From: Candidatus Bathyarchaeia archaeon
Lineage (GTDB): Archaea > Thermoproteota > Bathyarchaeia > 40CM-2-53-6
NCBI GenBank assembly: GCA_049517415.1
Contig: JBEKSC010000010.1
Location: 19,661 to 83,660 of the forward strand
Direction: 5' to 3'
Length of the DNA: 64,000 nucleotides
Shown: positions 32,507 through 49,402 of the stretch, piece after piece
Layout: each line of letters begins with the position of its first letter
Position numbering within the stretch: the stretch's first letter is position 1
Made by a program: the position numbers and the translations under genes
The notes under the pieces: model-generated
Seen by the model: the letters and a program-made list of their open reading frames with translations, nothing else
Databases searched by the model: none
Told to the model about the DNA's origin: nothing

Positions 32507-32788
32507 TTACTTGGCGCTACGGTCGGCGATTTCTTTAGCTATCTCTTCCTTAGTCTTTCCCTCAGTTACAATGCCTAAGCTCTTTCCCGCTACGATTAGG
32601 GGGTCTGCGCTTGCCTCAATTGTGGTCGTCGTGGCGGTAGGCGTATTCATTTCCTTGGCAGCCTTGTCAAACTCCTTCTTTGCAAGGCCTATGGATTTTG
32701 CCAGTTCAGGTAGCTTCTGCGGTCCCCATAGAAATACCACTAGGAGAATACCTACGATTACGAGCCACTCGTAACCAATTAGAGCCAT
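32507..32788 (-). CDS. tatA: Twin-arginine translocase subunit TatA/E
   Basis: IGYEWLVIVGILLVVFLWGPQKLPELAKSIGLAKKEF. Confidence 0.92.
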   Translation of the reverse strand: MALIGYEWLVIVGILLVVFLWGPQKLPELAKSIGLAKKEFDKAAKEMNTPTATTTTIEASADPLIVAGKSLGIVTEGKTKEEIAKEIADRSAK

Positions 32789-32915
32789 CCATCTTCACAC
32801 TCGGGATTGCCATGTCGCCCAATATAAGACTGACGCGTGATTGATGCAGATTTCCGCCTTTTCTCGCGAAGAATGAAATATTCCAATTACAAGGCCATGG
32901 CAAAGACTATTGTGT

Positions 32916-33992
32916 TTATTGTGTCTGGTTTCGATTCGGTCGATCCGAGGTTGGACCTATCACTTTGTACCCATAATGGTATGCGGCTATTCCTGCTACT
33001 GGAAGGTCAAGCCAAAAAGTTACAATCCTTGACAGGAGTGCTGCTGAGGCTGCGACGGCAACGGGGACTCCGAACAAAGACAGCGAGGCAGTGATTGCGG
33101 TCTCATATATCCCAAGCATTCCAGGAACCGCAATAGGCGTCATCTGAATCATTTCACCAATTGCCCCGGTAACTAGCACGACCCAGAGGGAAACAGAAGA
33201 GCCGACGGCTACGAGAACAACCCAGAGTATCAACACTGAGCACGCCCAGTCACCTAGACATGCGGCGAACGAGGTCGCAATAAGCATCCTTGAAGAGAGC
33301 ATCCGACGAAAGGTCGTGTGATAATCCTCCAAGAATTCGCCCGCCTTCCCGTTCATTCTTGCTTGTTTTTGTAGAATTTTGAGTACGGGCTGAACCAGTC
33401 TTAGAACACGGTCCAAGAGTGGTTGCATTATCTTCGGATTCAGGGAAAGAAAGAGTGAGGCGATTAGCCCTGCCACTGCAAGTAGTGGTACTGCTGCTAG
33501 TTGAAAAACTATTGAAGTCGTTACACGGCCTCCAAAGATAAGGACCACGAAGGCAAGGGATGTGGTTGCTAGAAAACCGACGATGTAGAGAACTCGGTGC
33601 AGGATAACCGTGGCAGTGGATTCTCCTAGTGTCATTCCAGACTCCTTCGAGGCCAAGATGCATCTTACTGCTTCAAGGAAGATACCGCTCGGCATAGTGT
33701 AGCTCGCAAAAATGCTCGCGAACGTAATTCCTTGGCAAGTTAGAAACGGAAGTCTAGCATCCGTAGATCGGATTAGGGCATACCATGCAGTCGAATACAA
33801 GGCGAAGCCAAGAAGTTGGACAGTAACCATCGCTAGAATAACGATGGGGTTAACTTGGAGAAGTACGCGGACAAGGGAGTTGAGCCCGACAAAATAGATG
33901 AAAGCCACTAGAATCGATATCCCTACCGCTAAGCTGGCAAGCCTCGTGATTCTTGCTTTGTTGATGGGCTGCACCTCCGATATTGCCGACAA
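32916..33992 (-). CDS. UPF0104 / lysylphosphatidylglycerol synthase TM-like flippase
   Basis: TMPSG, PIAVPGMLGIYE, LLSRIVTFW; multiple TM segments. Confidence 0.85.
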   Translation of the reverse strand: MSAISEVQPINKARITRLASLAVGISILVAFIYFVGLNSLVRVLLQVNPIVILAMVTVQLLGFALYSTAWYALIRSTDARLPFLTCQGITFASIFASYTMPSGIFLEAVRCILASKESGMTLGESTATVILHRVLYIVGFLATTSLAFVVLIFGGRVTTSIVFQLAAVPLLAVAGLIASLFLSLNPKIMQPLLDRVLRLVQPVLKILQKQARMNGKAGEFLEDYHTTFRRMLSSRMLIATSFAACLGDWACSVLILWVVLVAVGSSVSLWVVLVTGAIGEMIQMTPIAVPGMLGIYETAITASLSLFGVPVAVAASAALLSRIVTFWLDLPVAGIAAYHYGYKVIGPTSDRPNRNQTQ

Positions 33993-34415
33993 ACTACGAG
34001 CCAGGCCAGTTGAATCCTGTAATTATCGAATTCATACTTATATTCAGTCGCAACCACCATGAATCATATTTAGCTGAGACCGATTCATTTTGAGTCTTTT
34101 CAGCGACTACGTCCTAGACGAAAAGACGTTGAGTTCACAGAACAATCTAAACAAAAGAGCAGACCGAGCGTGCGCCAGTCCTTTACTCCTATGATGAGCA
34201 TGAGCATCCCGGCGAGGGTCCGTGCTAAAAGGCGTTACATGAAGCGATTGATGTCTGATCCTTCGAGGAGGGACCAAGATCAGCTGTAAAGACTGATTCA
34301 CCATCTACGAGCCCGTCATGACGAAGCTGTCTACATTACGATGAACCCAATAACACTAAATGACTGATTGAGATTCAAGCTATTTGGCGCGATTCATTAA
34401 TCGAAGGGAAAAAGA

Positions 34416-35309
34416 GTGGCGGAAAGTTCTGAACAGACGTCTATGACAATAATGGAACACATATCGGAGCTAATCAAGCGCCTGAAGGTCGTAATCATCG
34501 TGCTTGCGGTGACATGCTCCGTCGGGTTCTTGCCATCTGACCTTCAAGGGTACTCGGATCCAATCCACCAATACCGACCAGTAGTCTCGATAATGATGCA
34601 GAAAATGAAACACGATTTTCTCCCTAAGAGTGCCACCCTCATAGCGTCAGGTCTCGTAGACACGCTTTTTGTTTACATGTACCTCACCTTGCTCATCGGT
34701 GTAGTGCTGGCTTCACCAGTTATCGCGTATGAGCTTTATGCCTATGTCAAGCCAGCTTTGTATCCAAACGAACGAAAATACATCTTGTGGTTCGTAGGGT
34801 CTTTTGTCGGGCTCTTTACTCTCGGACTTATAGTGGCCTATTTCGCGATAATACCGATTACGTTTCAAATTCTGGTATGGTTCATAACTAATGGAGGAGC
34901 AGTTCCGTTCATTGCCATAAAGGACTTCTACAACTGGATCTTCATGCTTCTTCTGGCATCTGGCATTTTCTATACCATCCCTGTTTTCATCGTACTTCTA
35001 GTGCAGTTCAGAATCATCTCGACAAAAGTTCTTTCGGGTAAGACGAAAATTGCAATCTACCTCGGGTTGTGGATGATCATTTGGACCTTCGGTCCCGATC
35101 CAACTCCAATTACCGCTACAATCATAATGCTTCCCTTTTCGGTAATCTTTGAAGTAGCTGCATTCGCAGCACGAAGAATCGAGAGAAATCGTCCAACAGC
35201 GGACACCTATGCTCCACCAAAAACTGAGCTAGGTGCAGTGGCATGCAGGTTCTGTGGCGGCAACGTCGCCTCGTCGTTCTGTGTAGCATGCGGCAAATCA
35301 CAAGTCTAG
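34416..35309 (+). CDS. tatC: Twin-arginine translocase subunit TatC with C-terminal zinc ribbon
   Basis: MTIMEHISELIKRL, SPVIAYELYAYVKPALYPNERK, GPDPTPIT; tail CRFCGGNVASSFCVACGKSQV. Confidence 0.92.
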   Translation: MAESSEQTSMTIMEHISELIKRLKVVIIVLAVTCSVGFLPSDLQGYSDPIHQYRPVVSIMMQKMKHDFLPKSATLIASGLVDTLFVYMYLTLLIGVVLASPVIAYELYAYVKPALYPNERKYILWFVGSFVGLFTLGLIVAYFAIIPITFQILVWFITNGGAVPFIAIKDFYNWIFMLLLASGIFYTIPVFIVLLVQFRIISTKVLSGKTKIAIYLGLWMIIWTFGPDPTPITATIIMLPFSVIFEVAAFAARRIERNRPTADTYAPPKTELGAVACRFCGGNVASSFCVACGKSQV

Positions 35310-35486
35310 ACAAAACGTCATTCTAGAGGTGTAGCGGTCCTGAGCCTCAGGGGGTCTTGAATCTTGAATCTAATGAGTTATCGAACCAATTGTCAAGGTG
35401 ACGGAGTTCTGCGTTTAATTTCCAGACGCCGTAGGAATTCAGCATTCTTATAGGGAACCGAACGCTGCCCATTCCTGTGAAACGAG

Positions 35487-35852
35487 TTGCCACTCTTCGG
35501 ATATGAAGGACTAATTATGGCCGCGATACTCATAACACTTTTCCTGTGGGGTCCATCGAAGATCCCCGAAATGGCCAGAGCAATAGGCCAAGCAAAGAGA
35601 GAGTTCGATAAAGCAGCCAAAGAGGTTACGTCGTTTGCGGATGTGAAGTCCATCACAACTCCTATCACAGATTCTATTAACAAAACTATCACGAGTCCAC
35701 TAACGAGCCCCCCAGTGATTAGTAAGCAGACAACACCCCAGCCTCCTCAAGACCCAGTCATAATTGCCGCGAAGAGTCTGGGCATAAGCACCCTAGGAAA
35801 GACGAAGCAAGAACTCGTAACGGAAATAACTAATCTAACTACAAAGAAGTAA
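35487..35852 (+). CDS. tatA: Twin-arginine translocase subunit TatA/E, second copy
   Basis: FGYEGLIMAAILITLFLWGPSKIPEMARAIGQAKREF. Confidence 0.9.
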   Translation: MPLFGYEGLIMAAILITLFLWGPSKIPEMARAIGQAKREFDKAAKEVTSFADVKSITTPITDSINKTITSPLTSPPVISKQTTPQPPQDPVIIAAKSLGISTLGKTKQELVTEITNLTTKK

Positions 35853-36609: not shown

Positions 36610-36904
36610 ACCTCAAGCAGCCACATGCTCATTATTCCCTTTAAGTGATTTTATGATTCTCACCTCCGGTTTTGCTCGCCTCCCGCTTGTGTCTGCCTCC
36701 CCATTTTCCAGAATTTACATGGCCAGGAATTCTAACAGTGGCGGTGCTCTAAGCTCTTGCAAAGTCACTGACCTTTCTCAAAATTCTAGGCTTATATCCG
36801 CGAGCAGAGCCGTCGAAGTAGCAGAAAATCTTGCAGCGGCTTCAATCCAGCAAAGGTTTTATTCAGCCTCAAAAATACTGCTTCAGAAGGCGGCAGTTTT
36901 CATG

Positions 36905-36922
36905 GGTGATAAATTTATCGCC
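36905..36922. promoter_or_regulatory. Near-perfect palindrome overlapping an AT-rich TATA-like core upstream of cimA
   Basis: GGTGATAAATTTATCGCC (8/9 symmetric), just upstream of GTG 36936. Confidence 0.45.
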
Positions 36923-36935
36923 AAACCAAGCAGCC

Positions 36936-38606
36936 GTGTTCACCGTTAGCGAATTTTCTAAACGATCTGTTCCCGAGTTAGTCGAAGTTTACGACACCAC
37001 GCTTCGTGATGGGAATCAATCAGTAGGCGTAAACTTTACCGCAACTCAGAAGTTGCGAGTCGCCAAGACCCTAATCGAGGCTGACGTCGACTACGTCGAG
37101 GGGGGTTGGCCCAACGAAACGAACCCCACGGATATTGAGTTCTTTCGGATGGCGAAGGCGTTGGACAACACGGTGTTCTCTCGTGTTACGTCCTTCGGAA
37201 TGACTCGCCGCCCTAACACGCACCCGGCTAAGGACAAAAACCTAGAGTATCTCCTAAAATCAGGCACGGGGACCGTCACAATCTTCGGCAAATCGTGGCC
37301 CTTTCAAGTCGAGGCGATCCTTAGGACGACGCCGGATGAGAACAGGAGGATGATTCACGATTCGGTGGAATTTCTGATCTCACGTCAAAGAAGGGTCATC
37401 TACGACGCTGAGCATTTCTTTGACGGGTACAAGGCGAACCCAGAGTACGCTCTGTCCACGCTAAACGCGGCGCAAGATGCGGGAGCCTCAATGCTCGTGC
37501 TCTGTGACACTAGAGGCGGATCCTACCCATCGGAGATCTATGAGGTGATCAAGCAAGTGATTGAACAGGTCAGCGTTCCCGTAGGAATCCACGCCCATAA
37601 CGACCGTGGCCTGGCAACCGCCAACTCACTCTTCGCGGTATTGGCTGGGGCGTCTCACGTGCAGGGAACGATGAACGGCCTAGGCGAACGAGTCGGCAAC
37701 GCCGATCTCATTGAGGTCGTTGCCAATCTACACCTGATGGGCATACGCACTGAACTTCAACCATCCGAGCTTACCAACTTATCGCGTTTCGCATATGAAA
37801 TGAGCGGCTTGCGAGAAAATCCGTTTAAGCCCTTCGTAGGGAAGCATGCATTTGCTCACAAGGGAGGTGTACACGGCGACGCAGTACTCAAGGCAGAAAG
37901 GGCGTATGAGTTCTGTGACCCCGCCTCGTTCGGAAACGCCAGGACTATTACGGTTTCATCCCAGGCTGGTCGCTCAAGTCTGCTGTCCGCAGCCCGGAAA
38001 TTGGGATTCGATCTTTCGAAGAATGACAGTCGGGTGTTAGATCTCCTCAGGGAAGTCAAGTCTCTGGAGGCTTCGGGATGTAACCTTGAGTTTGCCGATG
38101 CATCTCTGGAACTTCTTTTCCTACGGACGCTGACTAAGACGCGAGACACATTTCGCGTCGTCGACTGGGAAGCTTCCGTTCAGAGCCAAGCTGGGAATTC
38201 GTCAGCGCAATGCAGACTCAGCATAGACGTCGGCCAGAAAGTGGTTGAAACTCATGCAAGCGGAAATGGGCCAGTGAATGCGCTTGATCGAGGCCTTCAA
38301 TTGGTGCTGAAGAAATCTTTCGGGTCGAGGTTCTCAGCGAGGCTTATCGGTTATCGAGTGAGAGAGATTGATTCGGAAGCGGCAACCGCGGCTAAGGTTG
38401 CGGTGTACATAGACTTTGCCGACGGTCGAAGAACTTGGACTACCGTCGCTTCTTCGACCAACATTGTGAAGGCAAGCGTAGATGCTCTAGTCGACGGCTA
38501 CGCGTACGCTCTCAGAACAGCGGGGCAGGCAACAGGACTGCAGCGAGATCCGATGCGAAAAGTTCCACTCGGAAAAGCTAGAGGAGATTCCAACGTACGA
38601 AAATGA
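36936..38606 (+). CDS. cimA: (R)-citramalate synthase, bacterial-type CimA
   Basis: YDTTLRDGNQ, EGGWP, DAEHFFDGYK, HAHND, GERVGNA, AFAHKGGVH, GNGPVNALD. Start set at GTG 36936. Confidence 0.85.
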   Translation: MFTVSEFSKRSVPELVEVYDTTLRDGNQSVGVNFTATQKLRVAKTLIEADVDYVEGGWPNETNPTDIEFFRMAKALDNTVFSRVTSFGMTRRPNTHPAKDKNLEYLLKSGTGTVTIFGKSWPFQVEAILRTTPDENRRMIHDSVEFLISRQRRVIYDAEHFFDGYKANPEYALSTLNAAQDAGASMLVLCDTRGGSYPSEIYEVIKQVIEQVSVPVGIHAHNDRGLATANSLFAVLAGASHVQGTMNGLGERVGNADLIEVVANLHLMGIRTELQPSELTNLSRFAYEMSGLRENPFKPFVGKHAFAHKGGVHGDAVLKAERAYEFCDPASFGNARTITVSSQAGRSSLLSAARKLGFDLSKNDSRVLDLLREVKSLEASGCNLEFADASLELLFLRTLTKTRDTFRVVDWEASVQSQAGNSSAQCRLSIDVGQKVVETHASGNGPVNALDRGLQLVLKKSFGSRFSARLIGYRVREIDSEAATAAKVAVYIDFADGRRTWTTVASSTNIVKASVDALVDGYAYALRTAGQATGLQRDPMRKVPLGKARGDSNVRK

Positions 38607-38742
38607 CCAATTTCAGTCGTTGGATGAGCGAAGAAACGAGGCTGATAGGTAAGTCAAGCCTGCGCGATACGCTTATTAGAATCTCTGCCGTGACGTGTTG
38701 ACTTCAAGGTCTACGAGTGCGTTGCAAAATAACCTACACCGC

Positions 38743-38793
38743 TTGACGAAAACGATTGTCCTCATTGCGCTTGTAGACGTTATTCTTCTGTAG
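38743..38793 (+). CDS. Putative ilv leader peptide (MTKTIVLIALVDVILL)
   Basis: 10 of the last 12 codons are Ile/Val/Leu; directly upstream of ilvB. In-frame alternative starts at TTG 38722 and GTG/TTG 38695/38698, downstream of CTTATTA (38672-78). Confidence 0.7.
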   Translation: MTKTIVLIALVDVILL

Positions 38794-38827
38794 CCCGTCC
38801 TCCAACACGGTTGTTCGGAGGGGCGGG
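38794..38827 (+). promoter_or_regulatory. GC-rich hairpin (about 14 bp) between the leader peptide stop and the ilvB start; candidate attenuator stem
   Basis: CCCGTCCTCCAACA-cggt-TGTTCGGAGGGGCGGG; begins immediately after TAG 38793; no poly-U tail. Confidence 0.65.
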
Positions 38828-38841
38828 GTAATCTAAAGGAA

Positions 38842-40575
38842 GTGAATACGCTAGACTTGACAAAGATGTCGGGTGCGGAGGCCGTAGTCGAAGCACTGCT
38901 ACGCGAGGGTGTGGAAGTTGTCTTTGGGCATCCGGGCGGGGCCAACATGCCGATTTACGATGCCCTTTACGACTTCCAGAACTTCAGGTACACGCCGCTG
39001 AATGAGACAAGTCTCCGGCATATTTTGGCTAGGCATGAACAGTCGGCCGCTCACATGGCTGATGGATATGCGCGTGCATCAGGAAAGGTTGGGGTGTGCA
39101 TGGCGACCTCCGGTCCCGGCGCAACAAACCTCATGACTGGATTGGCCACTGCGTACATGGATTCGTCGCCGGTCGTGGCGATCACGGGCCAAGTTCCCTC
39201 CTTCGTAATAGGAACCGACGGCTTTCAGGAGATTGATGTCGTTGGAATGGCGACATCTGTAACAAAATACACTTTTCAACCCCTCCGCGTTCGAGACGTA
39301 CCATATTCAATCAAGGCCGCATTTTACTTGGCCACAACCCGGCGGCCTCAGCCCGTTCTGATCGACATTCCAAAAGACGTTCAGCAAGCGGAGGATGAAG
39401 TGGAGTTCCTCGAATCTGTAAACTTTCCAAATTACGGCCCCCTACCAGACCCTGATCCAATGGTGGTGAAAACTATTAGCCGCGCAATCCTCGATGCACA
39501 GCGTCCAGTAATATTAGCCGGCGGAGGTGTCAAAATGGCGAACGCCTACCGCGAGCTTCAAGCATTTGCTGAATTTCTCGTCGCGCCGGTCGTAACGTCC
39601 TTCATGGGAAAGGGAGCTTTTCCGGAGAATCATCCCCTCTCGCTAGGCTGCATGGGGATGCATGGATCAGAACGCACGAACAAACTCATCCCTGAATGCG
39701 ATGTGCTACTAGTGGTGGGTTCGAGACTTTCCGACAGGACAACAGGCAAGATCGAGAAGTTTGCGCCTAATACGAAGGTTATTCATATCGACGCTGACAA
39801 AGCGGAGATCGGCAAGAATTACAAACTTCCAGTCGTATCACTTGTCGCTGACGCGAAAAAGGCTCTGCAGGCAATAATTCGTGAGGTGGAAACCGGTATG
39901 ATGGGCCGACAGCGCGACGCATGGGTCAAACGCGCACAAGAGGTGGTGGTAACGGCGAGGACAGAGCTCGACGGAAACGGTTCACACTTGAGTGGCCCAG
40001 AAACGATTAGAATGCTTCGCAGATTTATTCCACACGACGCCATAGTGACGACAGAAGTCGGCCAACATCAGATGTGGTGTGAGCAGAACTTTCAGGTAAT
40101 CATGCCGAGAACGTTCTTTAGCTCAGGAGGGCTTGGGACGATGGGGTTCGGATTCCCCGCAGCCCTAGGAGCTAAAGTCGCTAGGCCTGACGTTCCGGTT
40201 TTCGATGTCGCCGGGGACGGAAGTTTTCTGATGACCGAAAACTCACTCGCGACCAGCGTTGAGGAACAAATTCCGGTAACAGTCGTCATTCTGAATAACC
40301 GGATGCTGGGAATGGTAGCCCAATGGCAACGCTTTTTCTACAACCGCCGCTACTCCGCCGTGCACCTTGGCAAGTCGCCAGATTTCGTGAAACTAGCAGA
40401 ATCTTACGGAGCTGAAGGAGTTCGCGTAAGCACAATCCTAGAGCTTGAAACCGCCGTCAACAGAGCAATGCGCTCTCCCGTTACAACCGTCATAGATGTC
40501 CCAATCTCACCGGAAGAGAACGTACTCCCGATGCTGCCGCCTGGGGCTGGAATCAAGGAGATGGTTGTCGGATGA
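38842..40575 (+). CDS. ilvB: Acetolactate synthase large subunit
   Basis: FGHPGGA, RHEQSAAHMADGYAR, TSGPGATN, GDGSFLM...LNNRMLGMV (ThDP motif). Confidence 0.96.
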   Translation: MNTLDLTKMSGAEAVVEALLREGVEVVFGHPGGANMPIYDALYDFQNFRYTPLNETSLRHILARHEQSAAHMADGYARASGKVGVCMATSGPGATNLMTGLATAYMDSSPVVAITGQVPSFVIGTDGFQEIDVVGMATSVTKYTFQPLRVRDVPYSIKAAFYLATTRRPQPVLIDIPKDVQQAEDEVEFLESVNFPNYGPLPDPDPMVVKTISRAILDAQRPVILAGGGVKMANAYRELQAFAEFLVAPVVTSFMGKGAFPENHPLSLGCMGMHGSERTNKLIPECDVLLVVGSRLSDRTTGKIEKFAPNTKVIHIDADKAEIGKNYKLPVVSLVADAKKALQAIIREVETGMMGRQRDAWVKRAQEVVVTARTELDGNGSHLSGPETIRMLRRFIPHDAIVTTEVGQHQMWCEQNFQVIMPRTFFSSGGLGTMGFGFPAALGAKVARPDVPVFDVAGDGSFLMTENSLATSVEEQIPVTVVILNNRMLGMVAQWQRFFYNRRYSAVHLGKSPDFVKLAESYGAEGVRVSTILELETAVNRAMRSPVTTVIDVPISPEENVLPMLPPGAGIKEMVVG

Positions 40576-41084
40576 GCCAAGACGCGCAGTTACGAATCAT
40601 ATCCGCCCTAGTAGAGAATAAACCTGGGGTTCTCTATCGTATCTCTAATTTGGTTCGTAGGAAGTCATTCAACATCGAAAGCATTGCGGTTGGCCATGCA
40701 GAGACCCCTGGGTTAGCAAGAATGACTTTCACAATGTTCTCGGATTACAGCCGGTTCGATCAGGTGATGAAAAACATAGACAACCTGATCGATGTTCGAA
40801 GCGTTGAACCGCTCGAAGAAAGAAACGCAACGATTCGTGAACTTGCCCTCGTGAAGTTTTCGCCCGGCGCTCCGGTCACGAGGCAGGAGGTAATGAGCTT
40901 CATAGAAACATTCCGGGCCAATATCGTAGACATGTCGCCAGAAACTCTCACTGTTGAAATTTCTGGTGACTCGGACAAGATCAATGCGTTCATAGATCTT
41001 GCGAGAAATTTCGGCCTCAAAGAGGTGGCTCGGACAGGTACGGTCGCTCTAGCTCGTGAAATGATAATTAAAAGGGGTACGTGA
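40572..41084 (+). CDS. ilvN: Acetolactate synthase small regulatory subunit
   Basis: ACT domain LVENKPGVLYRIS..RKSFNIESIAVG, RELALVK, EVARTG. Confidence 0.95.
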   Translation: MSQDAQLRIISALVENKPGVLYRISNLVRRKSFNIESIAVGHAETPGLARMTFTMFSDYSRFDQVMKNIDNLIDVRSVEPLEERNATIRELALVKFSPGAPVTRQEVMSFIETFRANIVDMSPETLTVEISGDSDKINAFIDLARNFGLKEVARTGTVALAREMIIKRGT

Positions 41085-41085
41085 G

Positions 41086-42075
41086 ATGGCTAAAGTATAC
41101 TACGATAAGGACATAGATCTTTCTCCAGTTGTCGGAGCAAAGGTTGGCGTGATTGGGTACGGCAGCCAAGGCCGGGCCCAAGCACTAAACCTTCGAGATT
41201 CCGGCGCGGAAGTCTTCGTGGGCTTACGCAAAGATGGAAAGTCATGGAAGATGGCGGAAAGCGATGGTTTTCACCCGTTGACGATTAGGGACGCGACCGC
41301 CAAAGCCGATGCCCTCCTATTGCTAATCCCCGACCCCCAGCAGCCAACCGTCTTCACCTCCGAGATTGCTCCAAACCTCAAAGCAGGCAAGACGCTTAGT
41401 TTCTCCCACGGTTACAACATTCGCTTCGGCGACGTTGTTCCCTCAAAGGACATAGACGTAGTGATGGTTGCACCGAAGAGTCCTGGCCAGAGACTTCGTG
41501 AACTGTACGTGAACGGGTTCGGCGTTCCTGCTCTTTTCGCAGTTCATCAGAATCCATCGGGGCGGGCACGAGAATTTGTTCTTGCGTTGTGCAAGGGGAT
41601 TGGCGCGTCAAGGGCCGGAGTGTTCGAAACCACTTTCAAGGATGAAACCGAATCGGGTCTTTTCGGTGAACAAGCGGTACTCGTCGGCGGCCTCATGCGC
41701 CTCATCATCGAAGGATATGAGACTCTCGTCGCCGCCGGATATCCACCGGAACTATCCTACTACGAAAGCTGCAACGAAATGAAACTCATAATGGACCTCG
41801 TATACCAGTACGGATTCGTCGGAATGTTGCGACGAGTGTCCGACACCGCAAAATTTGGCGGTCTCACAGTGGGACCCAAAGTTATAGACAAGACCGTACG
41901 CGGTCACATGCAAGAGGTGCTGAAGGAAATTCGGTCCGGAGCATTCGCAAAGGCATGGACCGGAGACCGGGAGAAGAGCGCCCAAGCTCTCGACGCTATG
42001 ATGCGTGAACTCGAAAATCATTCAATCGAAAAAGTGGGCAGAGACATTCGGAAACTCTCGGGCCTCGAAAAATAG
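41086..42075 (+). CDS. ilvC: Ketol-acid reductoisomerase (class I)
   Basis: IGYGSQGRAQALNLRDSG, FSHG, MVAPKSPG, SDTAKFG. Note ETESGLFGEQ instead of ETExDLFGEQ. Confidence 0.95.
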   Translation: MAKVYYDKDIDLSPVVGAKVGVIGYGSQGRAQALNLRDSGAEVFVGLRKDGKSWKMAESDGFHPLTIRDATAKADALLLLIPDPQQPTVFTSEIAPNLKAGKTLSFSHGYNIRFGDVVPSKDIDVVMVAPKSPGQRLRELYVNGFGVPALFAVHQNPSGRAREFVLALCKGIGASRAGVFETTFKDETESGLFGEQAVLVGGLMRLIIEGYETLVAAGYPPELSYYESCNEMKLIMDLVYQYGFVGMLRRVSDTAKFGGLTVGPKVIDKTVRGHMQEVLKEIRSGAFAKAWTGDREKSAQALDAMMRELENHSIEKVGRDIRKLSGLEK

Positions 42076-42091: not shown

Positions 42092-43120
42092 ACGAATTAC
42101 ACTATAGCGTTCATGGAGGGCGATGGGATAGGTCCAGAACAATCGCTAGCCACAAAGGAAGCTCTTGCAGAAGTCGACCGCATTTATGGTGTGGCGTTGA
42201 ATATTGTACCGATCGAAGCGGGAGATCGGGCTCTTAAGGCGCACGGGGCGGCCCTACCAGAAAAGAGCCTCGAAACCATCAAGCAAAGCGACTGTTGCCT
42301 CAAAGCCCCAATTGGCGAGTCAGCATACGATGTCATCGTTCGCTTAAGACAACGACTGGATCTTTATGCAAACGTTCGACCGGCAAAATCGCTTCCGAAT
42401 GTGCCGTGTCTGAATTCCCTTACCGACTTGATCATCGTGAGGGAGAATACGGAGGACTTGTACGTCGGTCTGGAGGCAGGCGACAATAATAGGGCAACTG
42501 CTACGCGCGTCATATCTAGAAAGGCCTCCGAACGAGTTGCGAAATATGCGTTCGAGCTAGCCCGCGAGCGAAGAAACTCTGTCACGGCGATTCACAAAGC
42601 CAACGTCATGAGGAAGACCGACGGACTCTTTCTCTCGGCTTGCAAAGAGGTGGCCTCGATGTATCCAGGCGTTGGTTTCTCAGATATGCTCGTAGACGCA
42701 GCAGCAATGAACCTCATACGGAATCCTGAGCAATTCGATGTTCTCGTCACGACTAACATGTTTGGCGACATACTTTCCGACGAAGCGGCTCAAGTCGCGG
42801 GTGGCTTGGGCATCGCAGCCTCGGGGAATATTGGCGACGATTTCGCCATATTCGAACCCGTGCATGGCTGCGCACCAGACATCGCGGGGACCAACACGGC
42901 TAATCCGACTTCGCTCATACTCTCCGCGGCAATGATGCTGAACTGGCTGGGGCGGCATAAGCATGACAATCAAGCGACTCTCGCCTCGCGGGCGCTTCAA
43001 GGAGCCGTGGAAGTTTGTCTCTCGCGTGGAGAAGTTACACGCGACCTTGGAGGTAGCCTTGGGACTCTGGAAATGGGTAGGGCAGTAAAGTCACAATTCA
43101 GCCAGGTGGTCGTGGAATGA
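42092..43120 (+). CDS. leuB: 3-isopropylmalate dehydrogenase
   Basis: GDGIGPE, LDLYANVRP, VRENTEDLY, HKANV, NMFGDILSD, FEPVHG. The conserved strand YTIAF lies upstream of ATG 42113, so the start is probably ACG 42092. Confidence 0.9.
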   Translation, partial: TNYTIAFMEGDGIGPEQSLATKEALAEVDRIYGVALNIVPIEAGDRALKAHGAALPEKSLETIKQSDCCLKAPIGESAYDVIVRLRQRLDLYANVRPAKSLPNVPCLNSLTDLIIVRENTEDLYVGLEAGDNNRATATRVISRKASERVAKYAFELARERRNSVTAIHKANVMRKTDGLFLSACKEVASMYPGVGFSDMLVDAAAMNLIRNPEQFDVLVTTNMFGDILSDEAAQVAGGLGIAASGNIGDDFAIFEPVHGCAPDIAGTNTANPTSLILSAAMMLNWLGRHKHDNQATLASRALQGAVEVCLSRGEVTRDLGGSLGTLEMGRAVKSQFSQVVVE

Positions 43121-44649
43121 GTTCACCTCTCCGAATCTTCGATACAACTCTCAGGGACGGAGAACAGACACCCGGAGTATCCCTAACTCCCGACGAAAAG
43201 GTCAAAATCGCTCGCCAACTCGACAAACTAGGCGTTGACGCAATAGAGGCCGGGTTTCCAATCGCTTCAGCGGGTGAATGGGAATCAGTTTCAGCTGTAG
43301 CGAAAGCAGGCCTGTCATGCGAAGTCGTCGGTTTAGCGCGAGCCAACAAGCTTGACATTGACAAGGCGCTTAGTGCAGGCGTGGAATCCGTTCACGTATT
43401 CATAGCCACCTCCGACCTTCACCTGAAGTACAAGCTAAAACTAACCCGAGAGCAGGTGCTCGACCGCATAGCCGAATCGGTTACGTACGCAAAACGCCAA
43501 GCTCGAATAGTCGAATTCTCAGCCGAAGACGCGACGCGGACTGAAGCAGAATTCCTAAGAAAAGCCTACGAAACAGCCGAACGCTCGGGCGCGGGTCGAT
43601 TGAATATACCCGACACAGTCGGAATCTCCTCGCCCCAAAGCATCGCAAGAATTACGCGAGAAGTTGTGTCTGCAACAAGTGTCCCAGTGAGCATCCACTG
43701 TCACGATGACTTTGGACTTGCGGTGGCTAACAGCCTAGCCGCGATCGAGGCTGGAGCAACTCAAGCACATGTCACCGTCAACGGCCTCGGCGAGAGAGCG
43801 GGCAACACTTCACTCGAAGAGCTAGTGATGTCCCTACACAGACTCTACGATCGACGTACAAGAATCAAGACGGAGCTTCTCAGCGAGACATCAAAACTCG
43901 TAGCGTCACTAACCGGAGTTCGTGTGCAACCCAACAAGGCAGTGGTAGGCGAGAACGCCTTTGGGCATGAATCCGGAATCCACACTCACGGCATAGCAGA
44001 AATGCCACTGACATACGAACCGTACGACCCCGCGCTCGTCGGTCGCCGACGTTGGTTTCAGGCGGGTAAGCATGCGGGCGCGCACGGTATTGCGACTCAA
44101 CTCGCTGAAGCTGGATTCTTTCCCGACAAGAATCAACTAGCGGAGGTTGTTACGCGAGTGAAGGACATCGGGGACAAAGGTAAGACGGTTACTGACGCTG
44201 ACCTAATCGCGATCACCGAAGCCGTGTTAGGCAAAACTACGGGGAGGGAGCGCATCATAGACCTTGTGGATCTTGCAGTCGTGACCGGAAAAGGGCTTCT
44301 TCCCACAGCGTCAGTACGCCTCCGACTGAGCGGGAAGGAGTACACGTGTGCGGAAACTGGCGTCGGCCCTGTTGATGCGGCCATTCGGGCCGTTCAGAAG
44401 ATCACGGATCCGTCCGTTCAGGTGAGTTTGAAGGAATATCGCCTAGAAGCCATAACGGGAGGCTCCAACGCGCTCGCGGAAGCGCTAGTAAAGGTCGAAG
44501 ACGCGACCGGGATAACCGTCTCGGCGAGCGCAGCTCGAGAAGATGTTGTCGTTGCAAGCGTCGAGGCTATGGTCGAAGCGATAAACAAGGTCTTGCTTCG
44601 AAGGCGACTTCACGCTCCGCCCGACCTCCCAGTCTCGACCGTAGGATAG
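43117..44649 (+). CDS. leuA: 2-isopropylmalate synthase
   Basis: [47 protein letters not shown]-terminal regulatory domain GVGPVDA. Confidence 0.92.
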
Positions 44650-44710: not shown

Positions 44711-46387
44711 ATGTCAAAGAACTCTCGGCTAAGAAGTAGGGACATAACTGACGGTCCAGAACGCGCCCCTAACCGTTCGATGCTGCGAGCGATAGGGTAC
44801 ACAACTGACGACTTTAATCATCCCTTTGTGGGAGTCGCCAGCACTTGGAATGAGATCACGCCGTGCAACTTTCACTTGAACAAACTCACTAAGAAAGTCA
44901 AAGAGGGAGTCAGGGCCGCAAAGGGAACTCCTTTCGAATTTGGCACAATCGCAGTAAGCGACGGTGTCTCGATGGGAACAGAAGGGATGAAAGCATCGCT
45001 TGTTAGCCGCGAAATTATCGCGGATTCGATCGAGATTATGGCTATCGCGCAGAGATTGGACGGCCTCGTTACCGTTGCGGGGTGCGACAAGAGTCTTCCA
45101 GGTTCAGCCATGGCTGCGGCGAGGCTAAACATTCCATCTGTATTCCTCTACGGAGGTACTATTATGCCGGGAAAGTTCGAGGGCCGCGATGTCACAATCC
45201 AAGATGTGTTCGAAGCGGTCGGCTCTTATGCCACGGGCAAGATGACTCTCCAGCAACTTGAGAGCCTTGAATGCTCCGCCTGCCCCGGAGAGGGATCCTG
45301 CGGTGGCTTGTACACAGCCAATACGATGGCGGCGGCCGTTGAAGCTCTCGGTCTCTCGCTTCCCGGTACTGCTTCGCCTCCGGCTATAGATGAACGCCGC
45401 TATCAGGCATCGTACTTGAGCGGCATCGCTGTGATGAGCTTGGTTGAGAATGGGATTCGTCCCAGCGACATTCTGACTTTCGAAGCGTTCGAGAACGCAA
45501 TCTCGGTCGTCCAGGCAATGGGAGGATCAACCAACGCCTTCCTCCATATACCCGCGATAGCATACGAGGCAGGAATCAAGGTCACCTTAGATGATTTTGA
45601 TCGCGTTGGCCGCAGAACACCGAAGATCGCAGACATGAGGCCTGGCGGTAGGTACGTGATGTTTGATCTTGACCGAGCCGGGGGAGTCCCATTGATAATG
45701 AAGAAACTGCTAGGGAAGGGCATCCTGAACGGAGACACTCTCACTGTTACCGGGAAAACCCTTCGCGAAAACATCGAAGGAACGAAGTTTGATCATAGCC
45801 CACAGAATGTCGTGAAAGACCCGTCCGATCCCATCTCCCCGGAGGGGGGCCTAGTAGTTCTTAGAGGAAATCTGGCGCCTGACGGAGCAGTTGCAAAAAT
45901 ATCAGGCGCCTCTAAACGAACACACTCCGGACCCGCAAGGCTCTTCAATTCAGAGGAAGAGGCGTTCGCGGTTGTGAATAATCGCGAGGTCAATCCAGGG
46001 GACGTGGTTGTCATACGTTATGAAGGCCCAAAGGGTGGACCCGGCATGCGCGAAATGCTGGCCGTCACAGCTGCAATTATAGGTCAAGGCATCGACGGCC
46101 AAGTCGCGTTGGTGACAGACGGCCGTTTCTCAGGCGCCACTCATGGATTGATGGTGGGCCACGTTTCACCTGAGGCTCAGGTCGGAGGACCAATCGCTGT
46201 TCTAGAAGAAGGAGATGTCGTGACCGTGGACGCAGAACGGCGCGTGCTATCAGTCGACATCTCTGACGAAGAAATTCGTAAGCGATTAAGAAGGTGGCAG
46301 CAACCTGAACCGAAGTACAAGCGCGGCGTGCTCTTCAAGTACTCGAAACTAGTGCACTCCGCGTCGGAAGGCGCCATCTGCAATTAG
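44711..46387 (+). CDS. ilvD: Dihydroxy-acid dehydratase
   Basis: [54 protein letters not shown]. Confidence 0.97.
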
Positions 46388-46414: not shown

Positions 46415-47824
46415 ATGCCCAGCACTCTTTTCGAAAAGACGTGGGAAAACCATGTAGTCCACGAGGAGGCGGGGCGTCCTAGCCTAATCTGGGTTGACAG
46501 ACATCTGGTGCATGAAGTCACATCGCCCCAGGCATTCGAAGGGCTTAGATTGTCAGGGAGGCGAGTTAGGCGGCCAGACCTAACCTTCGCTACGGTCGAT
46601 CACAATGTTCCAACAACCGACAGATCCCTGCCCATACATGATCCGATCTCGAAGAAACAGATCGAGGCGCTTGAACGGAATTGTAGAGACTTCGAAATTA
46701 CACTCTTTGATTTGCATAGCCCGCAGCAAGGGATCGTTCACATAATCGGTCCTGAACTTGGCATCACACTTCCTGGATTAACAATAGTTTGCGGCGATAG
46801 CCACACTTCGACCCACGGAGCATTCGGAGCTTTGGCTTTCGGAATAGGCACAAGCGAAGTCGAGCACGTATTAGCCACACAATGCCTTTGGTTTAACAAA
46901 CCGAAATCGTTTGAAGTACGAGTGGACGGCGCAATTCCTAAAGGGGTCACCGCGAAGGACCTCATACTCTCAATTATCGGCTACATCGGCGCCGCGGGGG
47001 GAATGGGGACGGTGATCGAGTATCGTGGCGCGGCAATTACTTCGTTAACAATGGAGGAACGTATGACGATCTGTAACATGTCAATTGAGGGCGGAGCGAG
47101 AGCCGGCCTGATAGCACCCGATGAAACAACCTTCCGCTACGTACGGGGCAGGAAGTATGCACCCAAAAGCGAAGCCCTAGAAGAGGCAGAGAAATATTGG
47201 CGAGAACTACAAACTGACAGCAAAGCAACATTCGACAGAAGCATAAGGCTCGACGCGGCTAAAATGAAACCCCAAGTTACTTGGGGAACATCGCCCGCAA
47301 TGGTTACCGACGTCACGGGATCAATTCCAACTCCAGAAGATTTTCAGGATCCCCTCATGAGAAAGGCGGCGGCTCGCGCGCTTGAGTACATGGATTTGAA
47401 GCCGGGTACGCCGATTCAGTCAATCAAAGTGGATAGGGTGTTTATTGGGTCTTGCACCAACTCTCGAATCACGGATCTCGTTGCTGCCTCCAAAGTCATT
47501 AAAGGGAGAAAAGTTGCGCCGGGCGTACGTGCCATGGTTGTTCCGGGGTCCCAGATGATTAAGTATCAAGCCGAGGCTCAGGGATTAGATAGGATATTCT
47601 TGGAAGCTGGGTTCGAATGGAGGGAGTCGGGATGCAGCATGTGCCTAGGAATGAACCCTGACATCCTAGGACCCGGCGAACGGTGCGCTAGCACCTCAAA
47701 TCGCAACTTCGAAGGGAGGCAGGGACGCGACGGGCGCACCCACTTGGTCAGCCCAATCATGGCCGCGGCTGCCGCGGTTGCAGGCCATTTCGTCGACATC
47801 CGAGATTGGGACCTGGAGGCTTAA
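46415..47824 (+). CDS. leuC: 3-isopropylmalate dehydratase large subunit (bacterial type)
   Basis: [53 protein letters not shown]. Confidence 0.97.
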
Positions 47825-47829
47825 TTGAA

Positions 47830-48447
47830 ATGGAACCTCTCCGACATTACGAAGGAATCGTTGTACCCCTGGATCGAATCAACGTTGACACCGATCAAAT
47901 TATTCCAAAACAATTCCTCAAGCGGATAGACAGAACTGATTTCAGCCAGTACCTCTTCTATGATTGGCGTTTTCATCGAGACGGTGATTCGAAGAGTGAC
48001 TTCATCCTTAATTATCCGCGTTACAAGAATGGCAAGATACTGCTCACGCGAGAAAATTTTGGTTGCGGCAGCTCGCGCGAACACGCGGTTTGGGCTCTCC
48101 GGGATTACGGCTTCAGGGTTCTGATCGCGCCTTCATATGGGGACATTTTCTACAACAACTGCTTCAAGAATGGAACGCTTCCAATAACTCTCGACGATGC
48201 ACTCGTGAACAGGCTTTTCAAGGAAGTCGAAGAGCAAGTTGGTTACACCCTAGAGATTGACTTAGAAAAACAGACTATAGTCAAGCTTGACGGAGAGAAA
48301 GTCCCTTTCGAAATTGATTCGTTCAGGAAAAAGTGTTTGCTGGAAGGACTTGACGATATTTCTCTAACGTTACAGCATGAAGACAAAATCCGCTCACATG
48401 AAATGAAGCTCTACCCATTTCAAAGAGTTGAAGTTAGGAGGCCATGA
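47830..48447 (+). CDS. leuD: 3-isopropylmalate dehydratase small subunit
   Basis: [45 protein letters not shown] at 47830. Confidence 0.96.
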
Positions 48448-48454
48448 AAGTCCA

Positions 48455-49402
48455 TTGTTCAAAGCTCCAGCCAAATTCGTCTGGTTGAACGGCGAGGTTG
48501 TACCTTGGGAGAAGGCGACCGTACACGTCTTCACCCACGCACTGCACTACGGGACTGGGGTCTTCGAGGGAATAAGAGCGTACAAAGTGGAAGACGAGGT
48601 CTTCATTTTCAGGCTCACCGATCATGTTAGACGCATTACGGAATCCGCGAAGATATACAGCTTCGACCTCCCGTACAGCGCCGACGAGATTTGCGACGGC
48701 GTGCTGGAAATCATAGAGAAAAATGATTTCCACGCATCCCTCTACATTAGGCCGATTGCCTTCAAAGGCGTGGGCGGCATAAACTTGGACGCCAGAGCGA
48801 CGCCAACCTCTGTTAGCATCATTGCTTTTCCTTACGAGAAATATTTCGACGAGAACAAACCGGGACTCGACGTCTGTGTCTCAAGCTGGCGTCGTGTCGG
48901 TGCACCCGCTGTCCCTGCAATGGCGAAGGCTTGCGGCCATTACGTCAATTCCGTCCTAGCCAGAACTGAAGCGGCGGAAGGAGGCTTCGATGAGGCGTTG
49001 TTTCTTGACAGCAACGGAAACGTCTCAGAGGGTACCGGAGAGAACATATTCATCGTGAAGGATGGGCTCATCTCAACCCCGGGCTTCTCCAGCGACATCC
49101 TGAATGGGATAACTCGCCAAACGATCATAGAGCTGTTGAAAAATGCGGGCGTACCATTCGAGGAACGCCCACTGGCAAGGGCAGAGCTCTATACTTGTGA
49201 TGAGGCATTCTTCACCGGAACTGCGGCTGAGGTTGCCCCAATCCTCTCAATTGACCGAAAACGAATTGGAGACGGAGAACCAGGTCCAAAGACCAAGGAA
49301 CTCATGAGGGAATATCAGCGCCTTGTGACGGGCCTTAACCAGAAATATCTGCGTTATCTAACCCCCGTTTACAACCGTCAATATGCTCCCGCCCCACGGT
49401 GA
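48455..49402 (+). CDS. ilvE: Branched-chain amino acid aminotransferase
   Basis: HALHYGTGVFEGIRAY, YIRP, AKACGHYVNS, SEGTGEN, ILNGITR, TGTAAEV. Start uncertain (TTG 48428 or 48455). Confidence 0.95.
   Translation: MFKAPAKFVWLNGEVVPWEKATVHVFTHALHYGTGVFEGIRAYKVEDEVFIFRLTDHVRRITESAKIYSFDLPYSADEICDGVLEIIEKNDFHASLYIRPIAFKGVGGINLDARATPTSVSIIAFPYEKYFDENKPGLDVCVSSWRRVGAPAVPAMAKACGHYVNSVLARTEAAEGGFDEALFLDSNGNVSEGTGENIFIVKDGLISTPGFSSDILNGITRQTIIELLKNAGVPFEERPLARAELYTCDEAFFTGTAAEVAPILSIDRKRIGDGEPGPKTKELMREYQRLVTGLNQKYLRYLTPVYNRQYAPAPR

Follow-up and report, generated by a model that had tools for sequence, protein, structure and literature searches.

Leader-peptide attenuation is a textbook form of gene control in bacteria, and no archaeal case, nor any archaeal leader peptide for branched-chain amino acids (BCAAs), was found in searches of the open literature. 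A 64,000-nt stretch of contig JBEKSC010000010.1 from a Candidatus Bathyarchaeia archaeon (here, the window) raises the question of whether archaea might use it as well. There, cimA is followed, after a 235-nt gap (38607-38841) that an initial annotation made from the sequence alone had measured correctly, by ilvB-ilvN-ilvC-leuB-leuA-ilvD-leuC-leuD-ilvE. The gap holds a small upstream open reading frame (uORF) in which ten of the last 12 codons specify Ile (3), Val (3) or Leu (4), as that annotation had also reported. It read the uORF as a BCAA-sensing leader linked to ilvB, an interpretation favored by conservation, frame, composition and codon bias, while two of its details, a leaderless peptide and an alternative pairing of the repeat GTCCTC, had to be given up. 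Comparison with related loci indicates that the uORF is real and under selection.

Conservation of the uORF upstream of ilvB

Among 105 genomes of the window's order, 52 have an ilvB orthologue at E <= 1e-60; one of these had only 42 nt upstream, which left 51 leaders to be scored. A leader was counted as bearing the uORF when at least 6 of its last 12 codons were Ile, Val or Leu, codons -2 to -4 were all Ile, Val or Leu, and a start codon was present. Scored in this way, 49 of the 51 leaders carry it, spread over 8 families and 19 genera, which is the recurrence in relatives that the initial annotation had proposed to look for. A hairpin of -10 kcal/mol or lower begins within 3 nt of the stop codon in 48 of these 49, and the stop lies 57 to 78 nt before the aligned ilvB position. 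The gene upstream can be cimA, a divergent ilvD or one resembling leuA without loss of the uORF, and ilvB heads an ilvNC-leu cluster; the two leaders that lack it precede ilvB-ilvN pairs with no other BCAA gene on the fetched contig.

Metagenomic loci were scored as well. From 80 of them, 16 were dropped (10 duplicates, 3 too short, and 3 without the 5' end), and the uORF was found in 40 of the remaining 64, together with the hairpin in 35; at 70% identity or more, both were present in 17 of 19. Outside the order, a uORF satisfying this definition was found once in 51 loci of the class's other orders (mostly chosen from 274 matching genomes) and twice in 44 loci of other classes (chosen from 158). 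The composition of the uORF goes beyond chance: within the genome itself, 5 of 117,965 stop-ended frames of at least 12 codons end with at least 10 of 12 Ile, Val or Leu codons, and the uORF of the window has the highest count of these codons among 364 candidates that combine a short frame, an abutting hairpin and a gene 35 to 95 nt further on. The 23-residue peptide had no exact-sequence match in the protein collection and matched no NCBIfam model.

Reading frame, promoter and start codons

The frame first described for this leader (38743-38793) is present and open. It begins with TTG rather than ATG, and 38743 was rejected as the start, the start codon conserved in relatives being TTG 38722. 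Across 27 aligned close leaders, neither the TG of this codon (38723-38724) nor the TAG stop varies, and just 5' of 38722 an indel of 1 nt shifts the frame of everything further 5'. GTG 38695 and TTG 38698, from which a leaderless peptide of 31 to 32 residues had been considered, do stand in frame where they had been placed, but neither is conserved. We also anchored the start by the upstream motif, ignoring frame, which succeeded for 31 of 32 leaders; the start-to-stop distance is a multiple of 3 in all 31 (21 to 29 codons), and the one anchored leader with an internal stop belongs to an assembly in which ilvB, too, is interrupted by three stops.

The CTTATTA noted earlier at 38672-38678 is present and falls within a longer promoter-like motif. 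A seeded position weight matrix over 48 leaders gave the consensus CGATAAACTTATTAGA, located 117 to 152 nt 5' of the uORF stop; the search window was set by the analyst, and the match is therefore supportive rather than independent. In the window's genus, the uORF starts 46 to 49 nt after the first T of the motif. The conserved TTG 38722, the indel and the promoter position together point to a 23-residue peptide on a leadered mRNA instead of a leaderless one of 31 to 32 residues, and we infer that the uORF is translated from this TTG.

The start of ilvB also had to be moved. GTG 38842, taken as the start before, lies inside the match to the Shine-Dalgarno (SD) sequence at 38838-38845, and the conserved start is TTG 38857; gene callers predict ilvB products of 577 or 569 amino acids, matching GTG 38842 and ATG 38866. 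SD-to-start spacing is 10 to 11 nt in 9 of 12 members of the genus, and ilvB probably starts at TTG 38857 with its SD at 38838-38845. The GGAGG in the 3' arm of the hairpin was rejected as the ilvB SD, being 36 nt from the likely start.

Codon content of the leader

Composition was analyzed in 47 leaders, namely the 49 above minus two near-duplicates and the error-prone one, plus that of locus L033. Ile, Val and Leu make up 383 of the 470 codons in their last ten positions, and Phe, Met, Trp, Tyr and Cys none; in the transmembrane-like segments of this genome (n = 1,011), the latter five residues amount to 14%. It had been anticipated that a generic membrane peptide would show Phe, Gly or Met substitutions; with 0 of 470 for Phe, Met, Trp, Tyr and Cys, the product is therefore most unlikely to be one. 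Codons -2, -3 and -4 specify Ile, Val or Leu in 47 of 47 leaders and codon -5 in 46, while codon -1 does so in only 22. Second codon positions are 98 to 100% T, and third positions vary.

The synonymous bias that was to be expected of control codons is also there, the codons differing from those used by ilvB at the same loci. ATA accounts for 2% of Ile codons in the leaders versus 41% in the fetched ilvB genes, and the corresponding values are 72 versus 24% for ATT, 50 versus 21% for GTA, 6 versus 21% for GTG and 4 versus 17% for CTG, a comparison given without a p-value because the leaders are kin. Bacterial attenuators, too, are known to have biased control codons (PMC1183508). Judging from these patterns, the uORF is very probably translated by ribosomes that stall on its Ile, Val and Leu codons while awaiting charged tRNA, and would in this way sense BCAA supply.

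Two helices in the leader RNA

The 14-bp stem described directly after the stop codon (38794-38827, hereafter P2) was recovered at -18.4 kcal/mol (z = -2.34), and 3 of 200 shuffled sequences were as stable. No U-tract follows it in the window, again as described, and among 47 leaders, 4 have a run of four or more U within the 12 nt that follow P2; an intrinsic terminator, with hairpin and U-tract, was rejected on these grounds. The repeat GTCCTC is indeed present at 38758-38763 and 38797-38802, but the alternative pairing with the 3' arm of P2 that it seemed to offer found no support. When both conformers were folded, the alternative reached -7.5 versus -18.4 kcal/mol, with a pair probability of about 1e-10 in the window, and in the 47 leaders a helix between BCAA codons and the P2 3' arm is at -7.2 kcal/mol in native combinations versus -7.8 in swapped ones.

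These swaps were part of a broader test in which seven segments (21 pairs) were combined natively or with partners from other families. Only P2 and a second helix, P1, clearly beat the swapped controls. The arms of P2 pair at -16.7 kcal/mol natively versus -6.5 when swapped, a result that is partly circular because the arms were defined by folding. P1 joins the 5' untranslated region (UTR) and start region to the middle BCAA codons (-15.9 versus -11.7 kcal/mol); in the window it has 13 pairs with probabilities of 0.65 to 1.0 and a shuffle p of 0.005. Its sequence differs between families, and a median of 5.7 codons remains unpaired between it and the stop. As an uninterrupted helix, it outdoes shuffled sequences (p <= 0.05) in 27 of 47 leaders and in 11 of 20 groups. 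Among the 21 segment pairs we found no mutually exclusive anti-terminator and terminator sharing a strand and no partner in early ilvB, and pairing of any segment with the SD region or early ilvB was no better than the controls in the swap tests. RNAalifold returned no consensus structure when 27 leaders were aligned by sequence alone, since bulges shift the stems relative to one another, and the swap and shuffle controls were used in place of a pair-by-pair covariation count.

In the fold of the window, the conserved 5' end of the leader (38704-38708) can also pair with the ilvB start codon (38856-38860). As a general feature, this pairing was rejected (-13.9 native versus -14.1 kcal/mol swapped, 46 leaders).

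A proposed attenuator gated by FttA/aCPSF1

The uORF, its frame, composition and position, and both helices are properties of the sequences themselves. What they do is a further step, and the reading that we favor, which could about equally well prove right or wrong, is a ribosome-mediated attenuator without an intrinsic terminator, whose output is termination by the factor FttA/aCPSF1. Transcription from a TATA promoter would yield an mRNA whose 5' UTR measures about 22 nt, and on it a first ribosome would initiate at TTG 38722 and trail RNA polymerase. When Ile, Val or Leu is short, this ribosome would stall on the last control codons, before P2; P2 would then fold, the untranslated RNA behind the polymerase would stay double-stranded, and the polymerase would reach ilvB. 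When the amino acids are ample, the ribosome at the stop codon would cover 6 to 9 nt of the 5' arm of P2 and then be released, and FttA/aCPSF1 would cleave the single-stranded RNA beside the polymerase and terminate transcription. P1 would close over the 5' UTR after the ribosome departs, limiting re-initiation.

The geometry is compatible with this scheme. The ribosome footprint of Haloferax volcanii ends 11 nt past the A site (PMC7261190), so that a stall at codon -3 or earlier would spare P2, whereas a ribosome at the stop would cover 9 nt of it; since reaching the stop signals sufficiency, an intact P2 should mean that the operon is on. The initial annotation had left room for factor-dependent termination, and the genome does encode the factor (TIGR03675, 891 bits for a cut-off of 580) alongside a leader with no intrinsic terminator. 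FttA contacts nascent RNA up to position -36 and prefers U-rich RNA (PMC11616081). In folds of 46 leaders, the 22 nt from -15 to -36 include 11.0 to 11.7 unpaired ones with the ribosome at the stop, versus 7.9 with the ribosome stalled, and the gain is at least 3 nt in 28 to 30 of them.

Several observations weigh against this reading. The gain in unpaired RNA is small (3 to 4 nt) and follows in part from the masking itself. There is no conserved U-tract for FttA, runs of four U occurring in the loop and 3' arm of P2 in 6 of 47 leaders and after P2 at the low frequency given above; the last five codons make up the most U-rich segment (45% U), and a ribosome stalled early would expose them, the wrong logic for this switch. 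P1 passes its test in only the 27 leaders mentioned, and in 1 of 5 in family f10. The leaders are kin, and their counts are not independent. The uORF is absent before 11 stand-alone leuA-like genes of the order, and a genome-wide scan found none of the other amino acid operons of this genome evidently sharing the layout. Finally, similar codons before ilvB of Streptomyces coelicolor could be changed without effect (PMC1262725).

The same sensor could instead act on translation, the last BCAA codons extending P2 and pairing with the ilvB SD until a stalled ribosome frees it, with termination as at most a secondary polarity effect. In the window, 38783-38787 pairs with 38836-38840 at a probability of 0.56 to 0.71, and a ribosome on the last codons raises the unpaired probability of the SD from 0.22 to 0.54. 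Short-context folds show masking of the codons cutting the mean cost of opening the SD from 3.6 to 2.2 kcal/mol (by at least 1 in 24 of 47 leaders), the codon-SD pairing is long in family f8, and the actinobacterial LEU element provides a precedent (PMC1262725). In the same folds, however, leaders with swapped or synonymously recoded codons open alike (3.6 and 3.5 versus 3.6 kcal/mol), and codon:SD duplexes are no stronger in native than in swapped combinations (-6.5 versus -6.7). Whole-leader folds of 46 leaders gave an opening energy for the ribosome binding site of 5.97 in the free state, 5.84 with a ribosome stalled and 5.96 with one at the stop; chimeras gave 6.17, and native leaders exceeded their chimera in 20 of 46. 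Opening is independent of ribosome position, and a translational switch is therefore unsupported as a general rule, though the window shows a trend; we consider this output unlikely. Somewhat less likely still is an effect on mRNA stability or polymerase pausing, in which, once the ribosome is gone, P1 prevents another from loading and aCPSF1 or another RNase cleaves the U-rich codons between P1 and P2, or P2 serves as a pause hairpin. The stretch that P1 leaves unpaired before the stop is the most U-rich part of the leader, and FttA prefers such RNA (PMC11616081), but P2 just downstream of the cut would be expected to shield the ilv mRNA from 5'-3' decay.

Other explanations do away with the decoding of BCAA codons altogether. 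An arrest peptide like TnaC, whose nascent C terminus detects free BCAAs inside the exit tunnel and keeps the ribosome on the stop codon with P2 open, would suit the constant C-terminal pattern V-V-I-L-x-stop and a stop codon that abuts P2. Yet Ile, Val and Leu replace one another without restriction at every position, conservation extends to no other residue, and the bias among synonymous codons speaks for decoding and not for the peptide, which makes this explanation very improbable. We judge equally poor the chances of an untranslated RNA element or protein-binding site in which the NUN periodicity is incidental. The S. coelicolor codons before ilvB and leuA, with no role as control codons (PMC1262725), and a start that is often a weak TTG without a clear SD speak for it, against which the start-to-stop distance varies only in steps that preserve the frame (31 of 31 leaders), and second positions are almost fixed as T while third positions vary. 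A small hydrophobic membrane peptide without a regulatory role would account for the hydrophobic C terminus and little else, and we give it next to no credence: the residues that make up 14% of transmembrane-like segments are missing, the hydrophobic run is only about 12 residues long, the N-terminal half is not conserved, and the position is tied to ilvB whatever gene lies upstream.

Comparison with known leaders

The leader very probably works like a bacterial leader-peptide attenuator, its closest counterparts being the mycobacterial and corynebacterial ilvB leaders. The Mycobacterium tuberculosis ilvB1 attenuator controls ilvBNC through a uORF with a few BCAA codons (LVVI), and there a ribosome bound at the stop masks an anti-terminator hairpin that forms upon stalling, which is the place and role proposed for P2 (PMC13236596). 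Unlike here, it has an intrinsic terminator and a U-tract; in the leader of the window, no second hairpin and no U-tract were found, and its host is an archaeon with a TATA promoter. The Corynebacterium ilvB-II, ilvB-OMG and Leptospira ilvB motifs share a BCAA-rich uORF of variable length before ilvB (about 70 nt in Leptospira), but they are bacterial and two of them are also Thr-rich (PMC10272879). Attenuation of ilvB is also mentioned in PMC13158618, with reference to work on Corynebacterium. The actinobacterial LEU element and terminator-less cys leaders resemble the present case in having a leader peptide without an evident terminator and paired control codons, and factor (Rho)-dependent termination has been proposed for the cys leaders (PMC1262725). 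In the LEU element, the Leu codons pair with the downstream SD in a pseudoknot (PMC1262725), whereas here the lineage-specific partner of the codons is the 5' UTR of the uORF, through P1, and their pairing with the SD lacks specificity. Having neither an intrinsic terminator nor a competing hairpin in the predicted folds, the leader of the window is outside the classical attenuator family.

The enterobacterial ilvL, ivbL and leuL attenuators have a four-segment structure, and tnaC is an example of Rho-dependent leader control. The 1:2/2:3/3:4 switch of the enterobacterial attenuators, with its intrinsic terminator, is absent here; what they share with the archaeal leader is a run of cognate codons, a biased synonymous choice and a place at the head of a biosynthetic operon (PMC1183508). 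Rho-dependent leaders such as that of Salmonella corA are similar in that ribosome position and RNA structure gate a termination factor (PMC13675443), but here that factor would be FttA/aCPSF1, whose reach is limited to about 36 nt of RNA beside the polymerase (PMC11616081).

Rfam held no match for the leader of the window (best E value 8.7 among 4,227 families), and 20 further loci gave only a tRNA. The leuA-Halobacteria RNA motif and the Methanothermobacter thermautotrophicus trpY minigene are archaeal elements upstream of amino acid genes. The name of the former does not appear in the main text of PMC5737381.

It is conceivable, though we would put it a little below an even chance, that archaea use true ribosome-mediated attenuation in which the leader ribosome gates a CPSF73-type nuclease, FttA/aCPSF1, by melting a shield hairpin that abuts the stop codon, and that leader uORFs for BCAAs occur widely upstream of ilvB in archaea and take at least two forms, a long Ile/Val/Leu run (the window's order and ammonia oxidizers) and a short one with a single Leu codon (other Bathyarchaeia and Sulfolobales). 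If true, this would mean conditional, gene-specific termination by FttA and an in vivo regulatory use of the coupling between transcription and translation in archaea. As a putative natural switch of 160 nt with defined control codons, start, stop and two helices, the leader can be tested in a reporter or in vitro, and the finding points to related leaders in cultured ammonia oxidizers and Sulfolobales.

The ilv-leu locus

Table 1. Coordinates of the leader elements and of the genes of the ilv-leu locus (window numbering)
Feature	Position	Strand	Basis or remark
cimA, citramalate synthase	36831..38606	+	TIGR00977 above cut-off; upstream neighbor, start uncertain
BRE (B recognition element)/TATA-like archaeal promoter motif	38665..38680	+	Seeded position weight matrix over 48 leaders; transcription predicted to start near 38700-38702
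Helix P1, 5' strand, in the 5' UTR just before the uORF start	38709..38721	+	13 pairs with 38766-38778
Leader uORF, 23 codons from TTG, (M)QNNLHRLTKTIVLIALVDVILL and stop	38722..38793	+	TG of the start and TAG unchanged across 27 aligned leaders
Control codons, 10 of 12 Ile/Val/Leu	38755..38790	+	Codon counts
Helix P1, 3' strand, within the BCAA codons	38766..38778	+	Folding
Hairpin P2, 14 bp, directly after the stop codon and not followed by a U-tract	38794..38827	+	Folding; shuffles
Probable ilvB SD site	38838..38845	+	Best anti-SD duplex, -6.9 kcal/mol, 11 nt before TTG 38857
ilvB, acetolactate synthase large subunit	38857..40575	+	TIGR00118 above cut-off; TTG 38857 the predicted start; TG invariant
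ilvN	40572..41084	+	TIGR00119
ilvC	41086..42075	+	TIGR00465
leuB-like isopropylmalate dehydrogenase	42113..43120	+	TIGR02088, 389 bits, below cut-off of 410
leuA	43117..44649	+	NF002085 above cut-off
ilvD	44711..46387	+	TIGR00110
leuC, bacterial type	46415..47824	+	TIGR00170
leuD, bacterial type	47806..48447	+	TIGR00171
ilvE	48428..49402	+	TIGR01122

Inspection by eye of six relatives found no BCAA-rich uORF before cimA (Table 1). In the segment 46415-48447, leuC is about 80% identical within the genus and only 33 to 35% identical to the copies in the other families of the order, which suggests that leuC and leuD were replaced inside the operon while the leader was retained. Further upstream of cimA, at 32507-35852, lie two small genes that look tatA-like and one that looks tatC-like, judging from sequence features.

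Leaders of other ilvB and leuA genes

Outside the order, a second, very short uORF with an SD was seen before ilvB, encoding for example MRDRFLQV, MKRDRALQVH or MIGGYTLQV, with a single Leu codon for which the purine-rich start region offers a possible pairing partner (loci L105, L115-L118, L120-L122, L132, L133, L182-L186, L188, L189, L191, L194-L196, L220-L223 and L232 are examples). We found it at 13 of 51 loci of other Bathyarchaeia, at 16 of 44 of other Thermoproteota (among them 5 of 5 Sul7d-positive genomes of Sulfolobales type) and at 0 of 51 loci of the window's order, the pattern having been derived from the same loci in which it was counted. It is a candidate for a second BCAA leader. 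The same motif family seems, by eye, to recur upstream of stand-alone leuA-like genes of the window's order (L166, L168-L172, L174 and L175), as a AGGAGAGATCG-like sequence that reads RRDRFL, RRDSVL or RDRVL in one frame.

Runs of Ile, Val and Leu codons also turned up elsewhere. L134 is the only Bathyarchaeia locus of another order with such a uORF, which ends in VLLQQVIILL and lies 156 nt before ilvB, followed by a longer hairpin. By eye, four of five amoA-positive genomes have a shorter uORF rich in these codons with a weak hairpin or none; at these loci (L214, L216, L217 and L218) it has 17 to 20 codons and begins soon after a TATA-like motif, possibly on a leaderless mRNA. Locus L033, from a contig titled Chloroflexota bacterium, carries an ilvB 84% identical to that of the window behind an archaeal promoter and leader, and this contig is probably misbinned.

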